Shown: positions 1,162-24,967 of the stretch, piece after piece | Layout of the letters: every line of letters begins with the position of its first letter | Position numbering within the stretch: the stretch's first letter is position 1 | Assembly (NCBI GenBank): GCA_009991965.1 | Contig: JAACWQ010000003.1 | Location: 15,274 to 79,273 of the forward strand | Direction of reading: 5' to 3' | Length of the DNA stretch: 64,000 nucleotides | From: Minisyncoccota bacterium | GTDB lineage: Bacteria > Patescibacteriota > Microgenomatia > UBA1400 > PJMF01 | The notes under the pieces: model-generated | Databases searched by the model: none | The model's input: the letters and a program-made list of their open reading frames with translations, nothing else | Told to the model about the DNA's origin: nothing | Translations under genes and position numbers: made by a program

Positions 1162-2217
1162 ATGCTTTTTTTTCTCAGTTTTTTGCTGGCATTCTTAATC
1201 ACACCAATGGTGATTAAATTGTATAAAAAACATGGCTGGCTTGATGATCCAAAAAAACAAGTACATGCCAAAAAAACACATAAGATAGCGGTGCCGCGCG
1301 GTGGTGGGATTGTCGTGTTCTTTGCTATTCTCGTGTGTAGTCTTTTATTTTTACAATTTGATCAATACTTGCTTGCTATCTTGGCTGGTGCTGGCATTTT
1401 GGCGATAGTTGGTTTTCTTGATGATATCTACGATTTGCACCCCTTCCCCCGCCTACTTGCAAACGGTTTTGCCGCACTACTCGTTGTGGGATCTGGAATT
1501 GGTATCGCGTACGTCAGCAACCCGTTTGGTCCTGGCGTGATACATCTTGATCAGCCACAAATATCCTTTGCTTTTTTTGGTGAGATACGGAATATCTGGC
1601 TGCTTGCCGATCTGTTTGCAGTGCTGTTTATTATCTGGAACATAAACATTGTGAATTGGTCAAAAGGAGTTGATGGACAATTGCCAGGTTTTGCGGCCGC
1701 GGCGCTTGTATTTATTGGTTTGCTTTCAAGCAAGTTTGTTGGCGACCCCACCTCATTTAACACCGCACAACTCGCATTTATTGTGGCAGGCGCTTTCACC
1801 GGTCTCTTACTCTGGAACTGGTACCCGCAACGGATTATGCCGGGCTATGGGGCAGGATCACTAGCCGGTTTTTTCTTGGGTGTACTTGCTATTCTATCTG
1901 GCGCAAAACTAGCAACGACTCTGATGGTTCTCGCTATCCCAACTGCCGACGCAATTTTTACCATAGGCAGAAGGTTGTATGCAGGAAAATCACCATTCTG
2001 GGGTGACCGCGGTCACTTACATCATAAATTATTTGACACATTTGGATGGAGCAGACAAAAAATTGCAATCTTTTATAGTTTCTCGAGTATCGCGCTTGGT
2101 ACGCTCTCTCTCTATTTGAACACTATCGGAAAATTGCTTACAATTGCGATAACCATGAGCCTCGTGTTTGGTGTATTATTCTGGGTAAAGATCAAAAAAA
2201 GTACTCAAAAAAAATGA
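1162..2217 (+). CDS. Glycosyltransferase family 4 polyprenyl-phosphate N-acetylhexosamine-1-phosphate transferase (WecA/MraY superfamily)
   Basis: The DDxxD-like motif 'LDDIYDLHP' is present, the protein has multiple TM helices, and the conserved His is near the C-terminus (HLHHKL). The ATG at 1162 immediately follows the upstream stop. Confidence 0.75.
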   Translation: MLFFLSFLLAFLITPMVIKLYKKHGWLDDPKKQVHAKKTHKIAVPRGGGIVVFFAILVCSLLFLQFDQYLLAILAGAGILAIVGFLDDIYDLHPFPRLLANGFAALLVVGSGIGIAYVSNPFGPGVIHLDQPQISFAFFGEIRNIWLLADLFAVLFIIWNINIVNWSKGVDGQLPGFAAAALVFIGLLSSKFVGDPTSFNTAQLAFIVAGAFTGLLLWNWYPQRIMPGYGAGSLAGFFLGVLAILSGAKLATTLMVLAIPTADAIFTIGRRLYAGKSPFWGDRGHLHHKLFDTFGWSRQKIAIFYSFSSIALGTLSLYLNTIGKLLTIAITMSLVFGVLFWVKIKKSTQKK

Positions 2218-9512: not shown

Positions 9513-10109
9513 CTAGCGACCTCTGATATAGAGAATTATCCGCACAATAGTGCCAGAGATTTGCTCGTCACCAGCTTGTATCTGCAGTTTTTCTTGTGGA
9601 ATTTGGAAGGCATCGATCGCATATTTTCTAGAATCAGTATCAACAGCGGACCAATTCATGCCTCTACCTACTAAGCTATAGTCTCTGTTCGTATCATTAT
9701 ATTTTTGACCATTTACCACAAGCCTTCCCTGAGTATATTGGCCAAGTATCAGATATAAACTATACCAGTCATTTGAAAACTCATACTCAATTTTTGCTTG
9801 GTCACTTGGCCAGTTTGCTCGTAATTCATCAATCGTTCTGTTACTTTGAAAAACAGTTACGATCCCACAACGGGCATTGAACCACTCCCAACATTCTATA
9901 TTTTCGCCAGTGCCATATATTTTTTTTGACCCCAATGCTTCACGCAACAATATAACTTTTTGCTGCTCAGCTGTATGAAAGTTCATCCATAACTTACTTG
10001 GATTAGCAGGATAAGCAAATATATATACGCCTGCAACAAAAACCGCAAATAAAATTGCGGCTAAACAGCTAATACCTAGTATCAGTGTTACTTTTGATAG
10101 TAATTTCAT
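9513..10109 (-). CDS. Membrane-anchored (N-terminal TM) extracytoplasmic hypothetical protein
   Basis: It starts at 'MKLLSKVTLILGISCLAAILFAVFV', has a single N-terminal TM helix, then a Trp/Tyr-rich domain of about 170 aa. The gene is low GC. The ORF extends to 10154. Confidence 0.4.
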   Translation of the reverse strand: MKLLSKVTLILGISCLAAILFAVFVAGVYIFAYPANPSKLWMNFHTAEQQKVILLREALGSKKIYGTGENIECWEWFNARCGIVTVFQSNRTIDELRANWPSDQAKIEYEFSNDWYSLYLILGQYTQGRLVVNGQKYNDTNRDYSLVGRGMNWSAVDTDSRKYAIDAFQIPQEKLQIQAGDEQISGTIVRIILYIRGR

Positions 10110-15087: not shown

Positions 15088-17340
15088 TCAGAGATGTCTG
15101 CGCCATTTGCGGAAAAGCTCAAACGCACGCGTCATCCAATACCATTGTGTCAGCGGAATATCTTGTGCTTCTAGGTACTGTACTTCTCTGCCCCCAAATC
15201 CGCGCTTGAAGAGCGATACGCCTGCAAAACGATGCGCATCCATACCTGGAGGCGCCACGCCCCACAGATTGTAACTCGTACAACCAGCTTGTTGTGCTTC
15301 AGCAATCACGCGCCACTGTACTGCGTACGCACCAGGCAACTTGCCATTTTCTGGTGTCGAAATACCATAGTGGTACACCGCCTGCTTGTGATACGTCAGC
15401 ACAAATGCGGTCGCCAACAATTGTGTGCCCTGATATGCAGAAACCAAGAAGGCCTGATTTTCTTGTGCAAAAATCTGGAACTGTTCAAATAAAAATTTGT
15501 AACTAAACGGCACAAAGTGATGTCGCTCTGCCACCAATCGCTGTTGTTCATAAAAATTTTGAATGTCCTTGGGATCGCGCGAAACTTCTGTTCGAATACC
15601 TTCGCCCTCCGTCTTTCTAATTGCTGAGCGAGTATTTTTCCGCATGCCTGCCAGAAGCTGCTCCTCACTTTGAGTAATATCTATTTCAATTGTCCGATCA
15701 GCCGTTACATGCATAGCTGCTTTGAGCGTGCCGAGCCGCGCGACTTCTGCGCGAGCTATTTCGTCGTCTACCAGCTGTGGACGAAAACGAATAAATGAGC
15801 AGTGTTGCTGCCGGACAATAGTTTTTATCTCAGAAAACATTGCTGCTACTGCCCGAGGTTCATCCCAATCGAGCACCGGACCACCAGGAAAGCTGCAGTA
15901 CGAGCCACGCCGAGCACGCTCAAAAATGCCGAGTGCTACTCCAGTCAACGATCCATTTCGATATAACCCAAGGCGAATAATTTTATTCCCCAGCCGTTCT
16001 TGAAATACCCCCCAATGCCAAGATTGTAGAAAGTTTGCCTCTGGACGATCAGCAATCCAGTTCTCCCAGATCTCTTTGTCGATAACTTCTTGAACCATGT
16101 ATTCAGGTGCTTTCTCGAGCAATTGCAGAATAGTTGTGGCCAATCGAACCGCGGTTGCCACACTCACTTGCGCATGAGTTGGAAGGGTGAAAACTGAGCG
16201 AGCAAGTTTCTCTGCTTGTGAACACGAACCAGAGTGATAGGCAGAATCCCAAACCACACTCCCACTATCAACTGCTGCGCGATACCAGCGGTCAGTGAGA
16301 TAAAAGTTGCTCTTTTTCAGATCAGCCGCTAATTGATCTGGATCTTGGACCACCAGCGGAACACGCAGAAGTGAATAAGGGCTTGTTTGCAAATCTGGAG
16401 CGAGTAAGTATTTTTTGAGTAGGCGAGCGTACACCGTCGCAATCAATGTCCGATGGTTCAACTGAGACGGCAAACGCCCCAACTGTTCCAAAACTAATTT
16501 TGCCTGGCCAACTGAGAGCTTTTCCAACACTAGAGTCATGCGGAGCACGGGGGTTGTGATAATACCGAGCTTCTGCGCTCCACGCTGCAGTACTTTACCT
16601 ATACCGAGTGAAAACGTTGCGCGAATAGAAACAGTTAGTAGCGGATACACAGCCTGTCGCCAAGTACTTCGTGAGCGTAATTGTTGCGGAGCTCGTTCAG
16701 TAGCAAGTAAACCCTGACGAAAAAGGCAGCAACCGCCAGCAACCGCATCAATTATTTTGTCTCGCCCAAATGATGTAACTAGTACATGGCCAAAACTTCC
16801 AAGCCGCCCGCCCGACGGCGCTACGCCACCAAACGCTTGCGCCAAATCTTCTATGAGCAGGAGACCGCGTTCGTCACACCAAGTGCGAATTGCTGCGACA
16901 TCAGCGGGATATCCTAACAAATGTTGGACCAAAACGACTTTTGCTTCTGGATTTTTTTCATATGCAGTTTGTAGTGTTGTGACATCTAGGTTGGGCGAAT
17001 GCTCACCGATATCGACAAATGCGGGCAGCATGTTGGCACCAATGATCGCCTCTTCTATTGCTGCACAGCTGAATGCTTGAGTCAGTACTTTCGTTCCTGG
17101 AGTGATCGGCAAGTTCTGCAGTGCAAATTGGATTGCATCTCTCCCCGTTGCAAAAAAATGGGGTTTAGAAAAATCAGGAAAGATCTCTTGTAACTTCTCG
17201 GCTAGCAAAGCTTGTGTTTCGGCACTATTAGGAGGAAATACGTACCACCAGAGTGTCTGACATGCGAACGTAAAAGAGTAGTTGGAGCCAAGACTGCCAA
17301 ACACTGGCTTGTTTTTTTTCATAGTATCTTTACTAGCCAC
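15088..17340 (-). CDS. Bifunctional protein: N-terminal DegT/DnrJ/EryC1-type PLP aminotransferase domain fused to a C-terminal FemAB-family (aminoacyl-tRNA-dependent) transferase domain
   Basis: The N-terminal roughly 330 aa match the DegT pattern (GRDAIQFAL...AFVDIG...LIEDLAQAFGG...VTSFGRDKII, with the Lys). The C-terminal roughly 420 aa match FemAB ('FLQSWHWGVFQE', 'GMRKNTRSAIRK', 'AYAVQWRVIAEAQQAGCTSYNLWGV'). Confidence 0.7.
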   Translation of the reverse strand: MASKDTMKKNKPVFGSLGSNYSFTFACQTLWWYVFPPNSAETQALLAEKLQEIFPDFSKPHFFATGRDAIQFALQNLPITPGTKVLTQAFSCAAIEEAIIGANMLPAFVDIGEHSPNLDVTTLQTAYEKNPEAKVVLVQHLLGYPADVAAIRTWCDERGLLLIEDLAQAFGGVAPSGGRLGSFGHVLVTSFGRDKIIDAVAGGCCLFRQGLLATERAPQQLRSRSTWRQAVYPLLTVSIRATFSLGIGKVLQRGAQKLGIITTPVLRMTLVLEKLSVGQAKLVLEQLGRLPSQLNHRTLIATVYARLLKKYLLAPDLQTSPYSLLRVPLVVQDPDQLAADLKKSNFYLTDRWYRAAVDSGSVVWDSAYHSGSCSQAEKLARSVFTLPTHAQVSVATAVRLATTILQLLEKAPEYMVQEVIDKEIWENWIADRPEANFLQSWHWGVFQERLGNKIIRLGLYRNGSLTGVALGIFERARRGSYCSFPGGPVLDWDEPRAVAAMFSEIKTIVRQQHCSFIRFRPQLVDDEIARAEVARLGTLKAAMHVTADRTIEIDITQSEEQLLAGMRKNTRSAIRKTEGEGIRTEVSRDPKDIQNFYEQQRLVAERHHFVPFSYKFLFEQFQIFAQENQAFLVSAYQGTQLLATAFVLTYHKQAVYHYGISTPENGKLPGAYAVQWRVIAEAQQAGCTSYNLWGVAPPGMDAHRFAGVSLFKRGFGGREVQYLEAQDIPLTQWYWMTRAFELFRKWRRHL

Positions 17341-19502: not shown

Positions 19503-20171
19503 ATGAAAGCTAAAGTACTTCTGACCATTATAGTAAGCTCTGTTATCTTGTTTTCTGCCTGCACACCACCGGTACCAAGTAAACCGCCAATCAAAATCAA
19601 CACTCCTGCCGATCAAGCTACAAATACTACTAACCAAGCGCCACCGCTTGAAAATCAAAAGGAAACTATGCCACCAAACGGAAAAATAGAAAAGACGCTC
19701 TCAGATTTTGGCGAGATTAACGGAAAAATCGTCACCCTCACTACTACTAAAGGACCGATCGTTATTGAACTCTATCGAGAACAAGCACCGCTCACTACTG
19801 CCAACTTTCTCTCGCTAGTGAATAGTGGTTTTTACAACGGCATCGTCTTTCACCGAGTCATCGCAGATTTTATGGCTCAGGTTGGCGATCCATTGACTAA
19901 AGATCCGGGTAAAGAGTCGATGTGGGGAACTGGTGGTCCTGGTTACACAATTGCAGATGAGTTTGGACCTGGCCTGACACACAGCGGTCCAGGCATAGTT
20001 TCCATGGCAAACTCTGGGCCAAATACTGGCGGCAGTCAATTCTTCATCACGTACGCCGCAACCGATTGGCTCGATGGCAAACATGCTATTTTTGGTCATG
20101 TGACCCAAGGCATGGATGTAGTTAATCAGATTGTGGTTGGTGATTCGATTGTGTCGGTAAAGGTGGAGTAG
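19503..20171 (+). CDS. Peptidyl-prolyl cis-trans isomerase, cyclophilin type, lipoprotein
   Basis: The lipobox is 'LFSAC'. The cyclophilin motifs are 'FHRVIADFMAQVGD' and 'GSQFFITYAATDWLDGKHAIFG'. Confidence 0.85.
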   Translation: MKAKVLLTIIVSSVILFSACTPPVPSKPPIKINTPADQATNTTNQAPPLENQKETMPPNGKIEKTLSDFGEINGKIVTLTTTKGPIVIELYREQAPLTTANFLSLVNSGFYNGIVFHRVIADFMAQVGDPLTKDPGKESMWGTGGPGYTIADEFGPGLTHSGPGIVSMANSGPNTGGSQFFITYAATDWLDGKHAIFGHVTQGMDVVNQIVVGDSIVSVKVE

Positions 20172-20250
20172 TAGCTTACTCCATATCTAAGGAGTCAAAA
20201 AAATTAAATTAACAGAACATTGTGGTGTTCTTGCTACTTGCGGTCCAGAT

Positions 20251-22308
20251 GTGAGTCCAGCAGATTTCGCTGCAGGCTGGTGGCGCTTGCGACATCGTGG
20301 TGATGATGCCTGGGGATTGCTTACAAGGTCTGGTCAAATCACCCAACTTGAGCACGTACAAGCGTCAAATGGTAGCAGTCCCATACACGATCTAAGAAAC
20401 ATCCATACAGCTGCTAACTTGCGCGTCGCTCATGATCGCTACGTGACGAGTGGTCCACGTAGACCAGAAAATGCCCAACCATTTTTCCTTTCCGACGGAG
20501 CATTCACGTTGGGACTGGCACACAATGGAAATCTCCCAGTTGCAGTTGTTCAGCGCCTGCGCGAGCTACTGCACAAACCGTTGCCAGTTATCGCCAGCGA
20601 CTCTTGGGTGATGACCCAGTTTCTTCTCGAGTCGAGACAGAAGTATAAAACGTGGGAGGAGACATTTGTTGCCATGTTGCCACTCTTGCAAGGGGCATTT
20701 TCTTTGGCTTGCTTGACGGATGAAAATGTCATCTACGCCATCCGTGACCCTTGGGAAATCCGCCCACTCTGCCTAGGCAGGAAAAATGAAACTTGGGTCG
20801 TAGCGTCAGAAAGCGTAGCACTTGCCAATATGGGAGCCCAGTACGTTCGTGAGGTAGAACCTGGCGAAATAGTCCGACTAAATCCAGATGGGAGCAGCGG
20901 ATCGACGCTGTATGCCCAAGCCGACGAGCGACGCTGCGTGTTGGAAACAATTTACTTTTCGAAAAATGAGAGTGTTCATGACGGACAGACTATTCGAGAG
21001 CAGCGCAGGCGACTGGGAGAACTAGTCGGAGCTCGATTTAAAGAGAAAAAAATTGCCATTGATTGTGTGATTCCCATCTTAAACTCTGGCAAGCAAATGT
21101 CGATTGGGGTATCACACGCCCTAGAGATGGATAATACAGAAGCCATTAGTATTGCAACAGAGCTACGCTCATTTATTCAAAATACTCCCACCGCAAGAAC
21201 AGAAATAGTCAATCAAAAACATGTCGTTGATGGTGGTTATATCCAAGGCAAACGTATTCTCCTCTGTGACGACTCGCTGGTACGCGGAACCTCGCTAAGC
21301 GCTCTATTGGCAAAAATTCGTGAGCATAATCCAGCAGAGATTCACATTGTGCTTGGATCAGAACCAGTGGTAGACATCTGCGAATGGGGTATTGATTTGC
21401 CAACACGCGAAGAGCTTTTTGTTTTTCAGCTGCTGCAAACAAGACCTGACTGGAACAATACTGAAGAATACGAGGCATGGCTCTCCAAAGTAGAGCATCT
21501 GGTTGCAAAAAAACTCGGAGTAGATTCAGTGACCTACCTTGATAGAACCTCAGTCAATAAAGCACTCAAACGATCGGAAAATCAGCTCTGCCGACACTGC
21601 TTTGGTGGATCAGATCCTATCGAAAATAATCCCCCAACATATCGAGTGGAGCACTTGGAAGCTTTACGCAAGCAAAAAGTGCTGTTTTTTGCATCCGGTA
21701 GTGGCACCAACGTCGAGAATGTTTTGCAGCAGATGCAGGACGGGAAAATTCTTGCCAAACCAATTGGGGTAGTAACCAATAAACGGGACGGCGGAGTGAT
21801 GGATAGGGCCAGAGCATTTGGAGTCGAAACAACAGTTTTTTCTGCCAAGACATACGAACTAGATATTCTTTCATTTATAGTTTCACACCCAGAGGGGATT
21901 CCTGACGTAATCGTGCTAGCCGGATGGATGCGCATACTGTCTGATGAATTTCTCGAAAAGATAGAAAAACTTGGCGTGACAATCGTCAACCTGCATCCAG
22001 CACTCCTCTCTGGAAAAGGAGCGGGTTTTGTTGCTACCGCAGCAGGACGCGTGCCCGAACTACGAGGGGCCGATGTTATAGAACAAGCGCATCAAAAACC
22101 TCTTGCAGAAATGCCAGTTACGGGCGCAACGGTACATCAGGTGCTTCCAGCCCACAAGGTTGATACGGGCAGAGTTATTATCAAAGAGGAAGTAGCACGT
22201 CGTGAGGATGAAACGTTAGCTGAGCTTACGGCTCGAATACACAAGGCTGAGTATCGTATACTGCCAATTGCAATACAACGGATATTGCTAGAACGTTTGA
22301 AAGTATGA
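20251..22308 (+). CDS. Fusion of amidophosphoribosyltransferase (PurF: Ntn glutaminase + PRTase) with phosphoribosylglycinamide formyltransferase (PurN-like). The annotated GTG start is probably downstream of the true N-terminus.
   Basis: PurF motifs: 'LRHRGDDAWGL', 'QPFFLSDGAFTLGLAHNGNL', 'WVVASESVAL', 'LLCDDSLVRGTS'. PurN motifs: 'VLFFASGSGTNVENVL', 'VIVLAGWMRILS', 'NLHPALL'. The in-frame upstream extension encodes 'HCGVLATCG', which matches the PurF N-terminal catalytic Cys. Confidence 0.75.
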   Translation: MSPADFAAGWWRLRHRGDDAWGLLTRSGQITQLEHVQASNGSSPIHDLRNIHTAANLRVAHDRYVTSGPRRPENAQPFFLSDGAFTLGLAHNGNLPVAVVQRLRELLHKPLPVIASDSWVMTQFLLESRQKYKTWEETFVAMLPLLQGAFSLACLTDENVIYAIRDPWEIRPLCLGRKNETWVVASESVALANMGAQYVREVEPGEIVRLNPDGSSGSTLYAQADERRCVLETIYFSKNESVHDGQTIREQRRRLGELVGARFKEKKIAIDCVIPILNSGKQMSIGVSHALEMDNTEAISIATELRSFIQNTPTARTEIVNQKHVVDGGYIQGKRILLCDDSLVRGTSLSALLAKIREHNPAEIHIVLGSEPVVDICEWGIDLPTREELFVFQLLQTRPDWNNTEEYEAWLSKVEHLVAKKLGVDSVTYLDRTSVNKALKRSENQLCRHCFGGSDPIENNPPTYRVEHLEALRKQKVLFFASGSGTNVENVLQQMQDGKILAKPIGVVTNKRDGGVMDRARAFGVETTVFSAKTYELDILSFIVSHPEGIPDVIVLAGWMRILSDEFLEKIEKLGVTIVNLHPALLSGKGAGFVATAAGRVPELRGADVIEQAHQKPLAEMPVTGATVHQVLPAHKVDTGRVIIKEEVARREDETLAELTARIHKAEYRILPIAIQRILLERLKV

Positions 22309-23885
22309 CAAAACACCAAAAACTCAGCCTTCTTTTTGCAGCCATCGGCCTCCTCTGCCTCACCTTCGCCTTTGGCATTTTGCTGAGCGCCAATGCCTAT
22401 CACCTTTTGCGTAGTGGTAAGTATGAGCAGTCGCTCAAAAACGCACGCCAAGCGTTGCCAATTGCGAGATTGGTGAATAAAACATGGGTAAGCGGCCTAA
22501 AAACAATTGTAGCTGCAAACACAACCCTGCTTTCACTGCAAAAAATTCAAGAGAATGTTGATAACGGCGAAACACCAAACATCACAGAATTTGCGGGTAA
22601 TTTAAAAGAGCTTGAAGTCAGCGCGCAAGCCGTATCTGTGAATATTGAAAATTCGAAATTTCTCACTCGTTTACTCGGCTCAAAACTAGGCAAACTAGAT
22701 ACAGCAATAGAAACGCTAACTCACGTTGTGCCGCTTGCACAGTACTTTACCGAAGGAGAGAAAACGCTCCTTGTTCTCTTGCAAAACTCCGATGAGTTGC
22801 GTGCAACTGGCGGTTTCATGGGCTCGTATGCATTGCTGCATTTCAATTCAGGTAGTTTGAGCGAGATCCTAGTTGAAGATATTTACGACGCAGATGGACA
22901 AGTTCAGGAATACTTTGAACCACCAAAAGGTGTAGCTGAGTTCTTGAGCGGAGGCAAGGGTTGGCGTCTGCCCGATGCCAATTGGAATCCTGACTTTGCG
23001 CTGAGTTCACAAGATACCCTGCGCTTTTTTGCTCTGGCCAGTCGCAATCATATTGATGGTGTTGTGGCGATCAATTTACCAGTCGTCCAATCTCTGCTTG
23101 CTATCACTGGCCCTATCACACTTTCTGACCAAGATATTGTTTTGAGTGAAACGAATGTCGATCAAGTACTTAGAGCAGACAGAGACGCGTTTTTTGCTGG
23201 AAGTACTGCGAAAAAAGACATTATAGCGCTGGCCACTACACAACTAAAATTGGCGGTGGCGAAACTAAACACCGAAGAAAAAAAACAAATCATAGAACAA
23301 TTTCGACAACAGATTTTGCGTGGGAATGTACTAGTCTATTTCCCCAATCAAGAATTGGAAAAGCAAGCCCAAGCACTTGGCCTGTCTGGTTCGCTCGGTC
23401 CTCAAACACTACAGTCCAATACACTTTTTTATTATCCACTTGAATCAAACGTAGGCATCAACAAAGTAAATGCGGCTGTCACCCGTGAGTTTGTCATGAC
23501 GACCTCGGACACCCTGACAGAACTTGGCATCAGTTTGCACAACAACAGCACGCAGGATGGATATGTGAATTATCAGCGACTGCTCTTTAGCCCCGGCCAA
23601 GACATAGAACAAATTGTTGTCAACGGTGAACAGGTATCGGAGTTTGATCGAGAAACAGTCACCAGCAGCACTGGCCAGCAATATGACCAGATTGGGTTTC
23701 TTGTCACCACCCTGCCAAATAATATAACGCGCATTGCTCTTACCTTGACTCACTCTGCGGATTTTTTAAACATACTGCTGCAAAAACAACCAGGAACTGC
23801 CGACACAACACTCACGAGCATCACGCAAAATGGTGCCAAAACACACCAGCTCGATCAATCTTTTCTCGAGTACATGATAGAATGA
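22305..23885 (+). CDS. Membrane-anchored extracytoplasmic protein, DUF4012-like (family assignment tentative)
   Basis: It has an N-terminal TM helix. '[20 protein letters not shown]' resembles the conserved core of DUF4012 proteins that are common next to cell-wall genes in CPR genomes. It overlaps the purFN stop by 4 nt. Confidence 0.4.
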
Positions 23886-24967
23886 TCGATATGTCAGACA
23901 TTAAAAAAGCAAGTGCTCTCCTCGAAGAATTAGGGATTTCGACGCTACAGGCGAATCATCAAGCACTCGAAGCGAAAACGCTCACGCCTGAATTCTGGCA
24001 GCAGGCAGACGCACAAGAAATCCTCAGCCAACTCAATTTTGCACAAGAACAATTGAACATGGCAACTGAGTTGGAGGCTGCGCTGACAGACATGGAGTTA
24101 TTACAAACTTTACTTGCATCTGCGACCGAAGGCAGCGATGACTATCTAGACCTCGAGCAACAGTTGGCAAACAGCAATAAGAAACTGGACAAACTTGTTC
24201 GCAAAGTCACTCTACGACAGTACTTAAGCGGATCGTATGACAGTTTTGGCGCCATTATTTCCATTCACTCCGGACAAGGCGGCACCGAAGCAATGGATTG
24301 GGCTGATATGTTGCGACGCATGTATGTGCGTTACTTTGAGCGAAAAAACTGGAAATTTGAGTTGCTCAGCGAATCTCGAGGGGAAGAAGCAGGCATCAAA
24401 AGTGCAGAGTACGAAGTCCATGGACCGTTTGTGTACGGCTATCTCAAGCATGAACGTGGCACACACCGACTTGTACGTCAGAGTCCGTTTAATGCCGATG
24501 GTTTGCGCCAAACTTCGTTTGCCCTACTCTCTGTCTTACCACTTATTCCAGAAAGTGAAAAATCTGTGGTTATCGAAGATGGAGATCTGGAGTGGCAATT
24601 CTCACGTGCTGGTGGTGCTGGCGGACAAAATGTTAACAAGGTAAGTAGCGCGGTAGAACTCACACACAAACCAACCGGCATTGTCGTTCGTTGCAGAGAA
24701 GAACGCTCTCAGGTGCAAAACAAAGAGCGTGCAATGCAAAAGCTTCGGGCCGAGCTTGCGTTCCGCGAAGAAACTGCCCGAGAAGAATCACTGGCAAAAG
24801 AAAAAGGTGCGCACACTCATGCCAGCTGGGGTAACCAAATCCGCAACTACGTCTTGCATCCGTACAAGCAAATCAAAGATGTGCGAACAGCAGTCGTACG
24901 CACCGATGTACAGGCTGTGCTCGATGGCGACCTGGATGAGTTTGTGGAAGCGGAACTCAGCCTCTAG
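23882..24967 (+). CDS. prfB: Peptide chain release factor 2
   Basis: The 'SPF' motif (RQSPFNADG), the GGQ motif ([12 protein letters not shown]) and 'SGQGGTEA' are present. It is a single continuous ORF with no +1 frameshift. Confidence 0.9.

Follow-up and report, generated by a model that had tools for sequence, protein, structure and literature searches.

A PurF–PurN fusion gene of a Minisyncoccota bacterium with a probable AUU start codon upstream of its annotated GTG

The locus and its reading frame

This work concerns a gene with similarity to two enzymes of purine biosynthesis, located in a stretch of 64,000 nt from a Minisyncoccota bacterium (contig JAACWQ010000003.1, positions 15,274 to 79,273) that is called the window in the following. 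The longest canonical open reading frame (ORF) of this gene lies on the plus strand, extends from a GTG at 20251 to a TGA at 22308 and encodes 685 amino acids. It is identical to the NCBI entries NCN82563.1 and PIR60199.1, where it is named "hypothetical protein". A preliminary description, prepared from the DNA letters alone, had proposed a fusion of PurF (step 1) with PurN (step 3) whose catalytic cysteine is encoded upstream of every canonical start codon, and with regard to the reading frame this account proved accurate throughout. The in-frame stop preceding the ORF is a TAA at 20188-20190, and the frame remains open from there into the ORF. The codons from 20191 onward read GVKKIKLTEH-CGVLATCGPDV, after which the annotated GTG follows, and the AGGAG motif and the ATT that is the only start-like codon at the right distance from it were found where they had been placed (Table 1). 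No in-frame ATG, GTG or TTG occurs between the TAA and the Cys codon at 20221; a TTG and a GTG triplet at 20220-20227 are out of frame. Between the stop codon of the upstream peptidyl-prolyl isomerase (PPIase) gene (20171) and position 20219, none of these three codons is present in any frame. A frame of 20 open codons is expected by chance with a probability of (61/64)^20, or ~0.4, so that the open upstream frame is unremarkable on its own. The signal above chance comes from the homology of the upstream codons to the N-terminus of PurF and from their coding-type evolution.

A 128-kb ENA contig, the NCBI contig of the metagenome-assembled genome (MAG) and a Logan assembly agree in all 90 nt that precede the GTG. 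As these three contigs were assembled separately, random errors of assembly can be excluded. The preliminary description had considered that a base-call error might create or remove an upstream ATG. One place where such an error could mask a canonical ATG or alter the frame is the run of seven A at 20197-20203, immediately in front of the ATT. However, besides the agreement of the three assemblies, the closest related species, recovered from four samples, also lacks an ATG, and with no start in any frame between 20171 and 20219, a 1-nt indel in the A run would not create one. A sequence error is therefore hardly credible as an explanation.

Table 1. Features of the fusion gene, of its neighbors in the window and of related loci. 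Positions without a prefix refer to the window.
Feature	Position (nt)	Strand	Remarks
Shine-Dalgarno sequence AGGAG (AAGGAG from 20189)	20190..20194	+	8 nt upstream of ATT
Proposed start codon ATT (AUU)	20203..20205	+	Sole in-frame start-like codon before Cys; aligns with ATC of the sister species
Putative propeptide (M/I)KLTEH, 6 residues	20203..20220	+	Cleavage presumed, leaving Cys1 at the N-terminus
TGT codon, N-terminal nucleophile Cys1	20221..20223	+	TIGR01134 position 1; Cys1 of 1AO0/1GPH
Annotated GTG start	20251..20253	+	Judged a gene-caller artefact
PurF part: class-II glutaminase and phosphoribosyltransferase	20221..21612	+	TIGR01134, phmmer, Foldseek
Codons of four [4Fe-4S] ligand Cys	20935-37, 21379-81, 21589-91, 21598-600	+	Alignment to B. 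subtilis; family alignment
PurF/PurN linker (…PPTYRVEHLEALRKQ…)	21613..21675	+	Protein of the sister species terminates here
PurN-like GAR transformylase domain	21676..22302	+	Formyl_trans_N, TIGR00639
PurN Asn, His and Asp	21988-90, 21994-96, 22162-64	+	Conserved
15-residue insert in PurN domain	22009-22053	+	Predicted beta-hairpin
Stop codon TGA	22306..22308	+	Overlaps ATG (22305) of downstream DUF4012 gene
DegT-FemAB fusion gene	15088-17340	-	750-aa ORF (called 744 aa)
Release factor 2 gene	23882-24967	+	PCRF and RF-1 domains
203-aa Xpt-like phosphoribosyltransferase	L011:11527-12138; L092:11470-12081; P0008 neighbor		Below xanthine phosphoribosyltransferase cut-offs
Hairpin and T-run	L021:~520-552; L024:~115-156; L025:~9940-9980; L027:~1925-1965		Ends a few nt before ATG (e.g. 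cgcacccgcataagagcgggtttttttatctATG)
Hairpin and T-run	L022:~2879-2900; L028:~1497-1518		Abuts upstream in-frame ATG

The PurF and PurN domains

The proposed fusion was confirmed by profile and structure comparisons of both parts. The full product matches the Pfam families GATase_6/7, Pribosyltran and Formyl_trans_N. The NCBIfam model purF (TIGR01134) aligns with its position 1 exactly on the Cys encoded at 20221 and extends to nt 21612 with 223.5 bits. In a phmmer search against the PDB, the N-terminal part matched PurF of B. subtilis best (1AO0/1GPH, 9e-51), with Cys1 aligned to Cys1, and Foldseek returned template modeling (TM) scores of 0.83-0.85 to 1GPH, 1AO0 and 6LBP. The nucleophilic Cys is nearly invariant in our family alignment (A1) and is missing only from one truncated gene call (P0004). 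The glutaminase motifs RY.TSG, HNGN and SD and the phosphoribosyltransferase (PRTase) motif DDSxVRG are invariant (columns R79/Y80/T82, N108-G109-N110, S132-D133 and D356-D357-S358…R361-G362) and align to 1AO0. The iron-sulfur cysteines C245, C393, C463 and C466 are invariant as well; the first two align to C236 and C382 of B. subtilis, and C463-x-x-C466 forms part of the motif CRHCFGG. All homologs with a correctly called start carry a Met-initiated propeptide that ends in E[KH]-CG[VI] and mostly comprises 8-16 residues (range about 7-23). An AlphaFold model (AF2) built on the family alignment reached a predicted local distance difference test (pLDDT) score of 90.4 and a predicted TM score of 0.90; its residues 1-5 are disordered, with a pLDDT below 50.

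By its sequence, the N-terminal part is a Bacillus-type glutamine phosphoribosyl pyrophosphate (PRPP) amidotransferase with a [4Fe-4S] site and an N-terminal propeptide, and it is presumably active as such. With its closest matches, B. subtilis PurF (1AO0/1GPH) and plant GPRAT2 (6LBP), it shares a Cys1 that follows a short propeptide with an acidic residue at position -2, the four [4Fe-4S] cysteines, and the motifs of a class-II glutaminase and a type-I PRTase. For this class, autocatalytic removal of the propeptide has been established with the B. subtilis and plant enzymes (PMC7056826). The identity to B. subtilis PurF amounts to ~27%. In contrast to that protein, the window gene has an ATT instead of an ATG start, a propeptide of 6 instead of 11 residues, a Glu in place of Gly in RDPxGxRPL, a 12-residue insert (RPDWNNTEEYEAW, RPDW…) common to its subclade, and a PurN domain at its C-terminus.

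For this C-terminal part, PurN was by far the best family (TIGR00639, 21676-22302, 110.9 bits), as PurU reached only 35-38 bits and Fmt 25 bits. The Pfam family Formyl_trans_N scored 94.7 bits against a cut-off of 26.1. All 18 matches in the PDB were PurN or GART proteins, with 3P9X as the best (1e-19), and Foldseek gave TM scores of 0.85-0.88 at root-mean-square deviations of 2.2-2.5 Å. A solved chain that spans both the PurF and the PurN part was not among the Foldseek matches. The catalytic residues Asn-x-His…Asp align to the PurN structures, and the phosphate-binding loop for glycinamide ribonucleotide (GAR), SGxG[ST]N, reads FFASGSGTN here and IFASGSGTN in 3P9X. With B. halodurans PurN (3P9X), the E. 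coli enzyme (1CDE) and the C-terminal domain of human GART, the domain shares the Formyl_trans_N fold, the residues and loop just named and a C-terminal AE[HY]R motif, at 30% identity. It differs from them by a 15-residue insert directly after HPALL, which forms a beta-hairpin in the AF2 model. The C-terminal part is thus classified, on sequence grounds, as a PurN-like GAR transformylase of the 10-formyltetrahydrofolate type, and the corresponding activity is probable. While PurN is a free protein in bacteria and stands behind PurD-PurM in animals, it is fused to PurF here.

The start site

The ATT at 20203 is the only in-frame codon on the bacterial start list before the Cys and begins 8 nt past the AGGAG. 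ATG is the start codon of 65 of the 70 genes called in and around the window; four begin with GTG and one with TTG. Shine-Dalgarno (SD) sequences are sparse in this set: a 4-mer core was found for 21 genes and a 5-mer for seven, while 49 of the 70 have no SD. The AAGGAG in front of the ATT is among the strongest of them all, and the annotated GTG at 20251 is not preceded by any SD. However, AGGAG occurs 79 times on the two strands of the window, and only 12 of these occurrences stand before an ORF that has a canonical start and a length of 60 amino acids or more. With the motif this frequent, it is weak evidence of a start by itself; its weight comes from the 8-nt spacing, from its conservation before an ATC in the sister species and from the fact that few real genes here have a strong SD.

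This sister species is the closest relative, with 69% amino acid identity and a syntenic order of the FemAB, Mur ligase, PPIase, purF and DUF4012 genes. It is one species recovered from four samples (contigs L001, L013, L014 and L019), and its protein record is the truncated 481-aa call P0004, which lacks Cys1. Its DNA reads AAGGAG, 8 nt, ATC, then 13 codons ending in …SLTEH, directly followed by TGC for Cys, and no in-frame ATG, GTG or TTG precedes the Cys in any of the four contigs. The distance between ATY and Cys differs from that in the window by 21 nt, which amounts to exactly 7 codons and keeps the frame. In the 14 codons that precede GTG 20251, the window and L001 differ at proportions of 0.67 for synonymous sites (pS) and 0.13 for non-synonymous sites (pN), with 3, 1 and 7 differences at codon positions 1, 2 and 3, respectively. 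For the whole PurF part (484 codons), dS was 1.29, dN 0.22 and dN/dS 0.17. The upstream codons thus evolve like the remainder of the PurF part, namely as coding sequence under purifying selection. In addition, GTG 20251 of the window corresponds to ATA in the sister species, and the annotated GTG of the sister corresponds to GTT in the window. As neither annotated GTG is conserved between the two species while the Cys-encoding frame is, the GTG call was judged to be an artefact.

The preliminary description had left two options, either initiation at AUU (or another non-AUG codon) with removal of a propeptide or an inactive glutaminase, and the first of these is favored by the comparative evidence, namely by the conserved SD-N8-ATY arrangement, the 7-codon indel and the purifying selection. 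Under the second option, translation would start at GTG 20251 and the product would lack Cys1 and the first beta-strand; with its glutaminase dead, any remaining function would be that of an ammonia-dependent PRPP amidotransferase with PurN attached. In favor of this, GTG counts among the canonical starts and was selected by NCBI and other gene callers, and PurF enzymes can use NH3 directly. On the other hand, this codon lacks an SD and is an ATA in the sister species, purifying selection, with changes mostly at third positions, acts on the 14 codons upstream, among them the one for Cys, all remaining glutaminase residues are conserved, and a strong SD lies upstream at the right spacing from an ATY in both species. 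No ortholog starts at this GTG, and every ortholog encodes the Cys. We consider a start at the GTG to be very unlikely. Judged from the sequence, translation most likely initiates at AUU 20203, and the best reading of the 685-aa NCBI model is that it is truncated at the N-terminus and thereby deprived of its catalytic Cys.

Across relatives, the upstream alignment shows the Cys to be conserved, with ATC as the presumed start in the sister species and ATG in all distant relatives of the fusion gene. An in-frame ATY at SD spacing without a canonical alternative is therefore kept in two species only. AUU starts with a good SD are known from infC and pcnB of E. coli, where the start is conserved in relatives and missed by gene callers restricted to ATG, GTG and TTG. 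Compared with these cases, conservation here extends over two species, and IF3-dependent autoregulation is without support.

Two other routes into the frame were considered and rejected. Read-through from the PPIase gene conflicts with the different frames of the two genes in the window and with the intervening TAA at 20188; in L001, the PPIase and purF frames coincide, a coincidence that is absent from the window. Frameshifting or transcriptional slippage on the A run was discarded, as there is no upstream start codon in any frame. In an Rfam search of the regions preceding the window gene and ten related loci, tRNAs were the only matches; no riboswitch was returned.

As a separate observation on start sites in this organism, several genes (e.g. 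those starting at 19503 and 13459 in the window, as well as L009:7615 and L009:1550) have a hexamer resembling TATACT or TATAAT 6-12 nt ahead of their ATG. Together with the mostly absent SDs, this suggests leaderless mRNAs or mRNAs with very short leaders.

Distribution and evolution of the fusion

The fusion had been described as unusual in itself, which did not hold up. Approximately 25 of the top matches are PurF-PurN proteins of 699-757 aa, and 1.84 billion representatives at 50% identity, searched exhaustively, contained ~20 or more fused clusters. The PurF-PurN fusion is real but not unique. Fused homologs are linked to other pur genes, which ties them to de novo purine synthesis. In P0018, the fusion heads the series purL-purB-purK-purE-purC-purM-xpt-like, in L023 it is followed by purD-HAD-purL-purQ-purH-purB, and in L029 by purD-purM-purL. 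On a 46.7-kb contig (P0026, ENA ERZ27296333), a 1,420-aa PurD::PurL fusion (domains GARS_N/A/C, FGAR-AT linker, AIRS and AIRS_C) lies immediately downstream, and four purine steps are encoded in two polypeptides. The most extensive form is a single ORF of 2,447 aa on two metagenome contigs of 287 kb and 23 kb (L016:9989-17332 and L012:2760-10103), flanked by two purP genes upstream and by purK downstream. Its domains are PurF(11-465), PurN(488-701), PurD(724-1157), PurL(1412-2173) and PurQ(2187-2408); by its sequence, this protein combines purine steps 1, 3, 2 and 4, in this order, on one chain. The preliminary description had also pointed out that no PurD lies between steps 1 and 3. With purD adjoining the fusion or fused downstream of it in relatives, this is not a puzzle.

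Other known fusions of the purine pathway are animal GART (PurD-PurM-PurN), PAICS (PurC-PurE) and the haloarchaeal PurN-PurH1 protein (PMC3261824). The window protein has in common with known purine fusions that non-consecutive steps are placed on one polypeptide and that PurN is a frequent partner, but it joins step 1 to step 3. Nothing specific on a PurF-PurN fusion or on purine gene fusions in the candidate phyla radiation (CPR) was found in the searchable literature. While neither the individual domains nor the propeptide mechanism are new, the searchable literature gave no account of the PurF-PurN architecture or of its larger relatives.

In a rough neighbor-joining tree without support values, the window gene and its sister belong to a subclade in which every other member (P0008, 9, 10, 12, 19, 21 and 22) lacks the fusion, and the fused forms occur in two deeper clades. 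The PurF of the sister species ends in …PPTYRIELDI*, 31 nt before the DUF4012 gene (L001:7447-7478 vs. window 21640-22308). The entire PurN domain (~640 bp) has thus been cleanly deleted or is missing there, although the two genomes are syntenic in other respects. Standalone PurN proteins with 54% identity to the PurN domain of the window exist, one of them on a 346-kb contig together with an unfused PurF and a PurD. With a sister that lacks PurN and with standalone PurN relatives, fusion and fission have occurred repeatedly, and the PurN domain may have been either retained or regained in the lineage of the window.

In three unfused members of the subclade, the purF-like gene is followed by a gene for a 203-aa Xpt-like PRTase (Table 1), which overlaps the purF-like stop in L092 and in the P0008 contig. 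A gene similar to it closes the pur operon of P0018 (L010:21322-21942). The L092 genome also contains two PurP genes 8.5 kb from purF.

In the distant clade, several fusion genes are preceded by a GC-rich hairpin and a T-run resembling an intrinsic terminator (Table 1). No match for these hairpins was found in Rfam; they could act as attenuators, or they could terminate the preceding gene.

Gene neighborhood

The region of the window encodes recA, rny, secG, the DegT-FemAB fusion, a murF-like gene, PPIase, DUF4012, prfB, ftsEX, a ribosomal protein cluster and rpoBC. The DegT-FemAB gene encodes an aminotransferase of the DegT/DnrJ/EryC1 type fused to peptidyltransferase domains of the FemAB family; it adjoins the MurF-like ligase gene, and this arrangement is kept in the sister species. 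The gene for release factor 2 is one uninterrupted ORF without the programmed +1 frameshift site of many bacteria, and its start was called at two positions across assemblies (361 aa vs. 358 aa).

Interpretation

With a probability of roughly 0.7, we favor a bifunctional PurF-PurN enzyme that is translated from AUU 20203, matured by removal of its propeptide and complemented by a PurD encoded elsewhere. The gene at 20203..22308 would accordingly supply purine steps 1 and 3 in one protein. Initiation at the AUU would be driven by the unusually strong AAGGAG 8 nt upstream, and the 6-residue propeptide fMet-KLTEH would be removed to expose Cys1, as in the PurF enzymes of B. subtilis and plants. 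PurD, the enzyme of step 2, would be a separate protein, and we infer that the rest of the pathway is present in the genome as well.

Several observations weigh against this reading. Both domains score below the equivalog cut-offs of their models, with 223.5 bits against 350 for TIGR01134 and 110.9 bits against 150.1 for TIGR00639. However, the five-domain relative of 2,447 aa, whose function is evident from its context, reaches only 241.5 bits with TIGR01134, and the cut-off thus excludes the whole divergent clade. The window and sister proteins carry Glu or Asp for the nearly invariant Gly of RDPWGIRPL and read HDRY where the family has HNRY. With both domains divergent and this Gly replaced, the role of the enzyme may have shifted. 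Starts of the AUU kind are weak in model bacteria, the AUU/AUC start is supported by one other species only, and the sister offers possible alternative starts in an in-frame CTG (5929), which follows a GGAG at 6 nt, and in a further ATT. The sister also lacks the entire PurN domain. Furthermore, no other pur genes were found in the 64-kb window and ~7 kb of upstream flank, so that the gene stands outside a pur operon. As a statement on the whole genome, the lone PurF/PurN of the preliminary description is not supported by this. When the PurD domain of the 2,447-aa protein served as query, no PurD attributable to the MAG of the window was among the 120 best matches, and a look-up of the cluster names of unnamed NCBI matches did not reveal one either. 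Eight PurDs of CPR type were retrieved, two of which lie on contigs of P0017 and P0028, and none is tied to this MAG. As the PurD of P0018 is also off this list despite the pur operon of P0018, the missing PurD is weak evidence. A protein search of species-representative genomes returned only two irrelevant loci.

Some of these points would also fit a gene in early decay, where the lost ATG is the first lesion, the pathway is being lost from a reduced CPR genome and the product falls below a useful level. The missing pur neighbors, the loss of PurN in the sister and the exchange of Gly for Glu or Asp agree with this, as does the report that de novo nucleotide synthesis is missing from 93% of the genomes of Patescibacteria, the genes being scattered in their distribution (bioRxiv 10.64898/2026.06.21.733656). 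However, the strong purifying selection argues against decay: with a dN/dS of 0.17 over 484 codons at a dS of ~1.3, the ORF has stayed intact and constrained in both lineages long after their divergence. Moreover, the SD-N8-ATY arrangement was kept across an in-frame indel, no frameshifts or internal stops are found, and all catalytic and iron-sulfur residues are retained. Decay is accordingly considered improbable to the same high degree as a start at the GTG.

A role outside the canonical pathway, perhaps as a lone enzyme without PurD, is unlikely too, though slightly less so. Here, for example, another ribosylamine would be made or formylated, or the enzyme would act in salvage with the Xpt-like PRTases. 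The subclade with the 12-residue insert (RPDW…) has no adjacent core pur genes, the Xpt-like gene follows purF in three of its unfused members with an overlap in two, and no PurD can be traced to the contigs of the window or of the subclade. The catalytic and substrate-binding motifs of both PurF and PurN are all canonical, however, and L092 as a genome of the same subclade carries the two PurP genes; as to PurD, the P0018 case applies as above.

An extension of the favored bifunctional enzyme is more speculative, and we regard it as doubtful, although it deserves more credit than the alternatives named so far. In Microgenomates-type CPR bacteria, PurF-PurN might serve as a channeling scaffold, with PurD docking between the two domains so that the highly labile phosphoribosylamine and GAR would stay in the complex. 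Relatives would have completed this scaffold in the form of PurF-PurN and PurD-PurL pairs and of the 2,447-aa protein as a "purinosome on one chain". In the lineage of the window, the conserved AUU or AUC behind a strong SD could then be a deliberate translational throttle on pathway entry, for example one that is sensitive to initiation factor 3 (IF3).

Conclusions

The public records NCN82563.1 and PIR60199.1 and the 481-aa call of the sister species lack the catalytic Cys, are most likely truncated and are named "hypothetical protein", which would be due to gene callers disregarding ATT and ATC as starts. Where metabolic reconstructions of CPR bacteria build on calls of this kind, or on equivalog cut-offs which these proteins fail to reach, the capacity for purine synthesis will be under-counted. 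Outside infC, the classic case, conserved AUU/AUC starts are rare, and this gene would provide one. Finally, the family to which it belongs has seen repeated fusion and splitting of purine enzymes, up to a five-domain protein that covers steps 1-4. As a natural system, this family lends itself to studies of how PurF passes the unstable phosphoribosylamine on to PurD.

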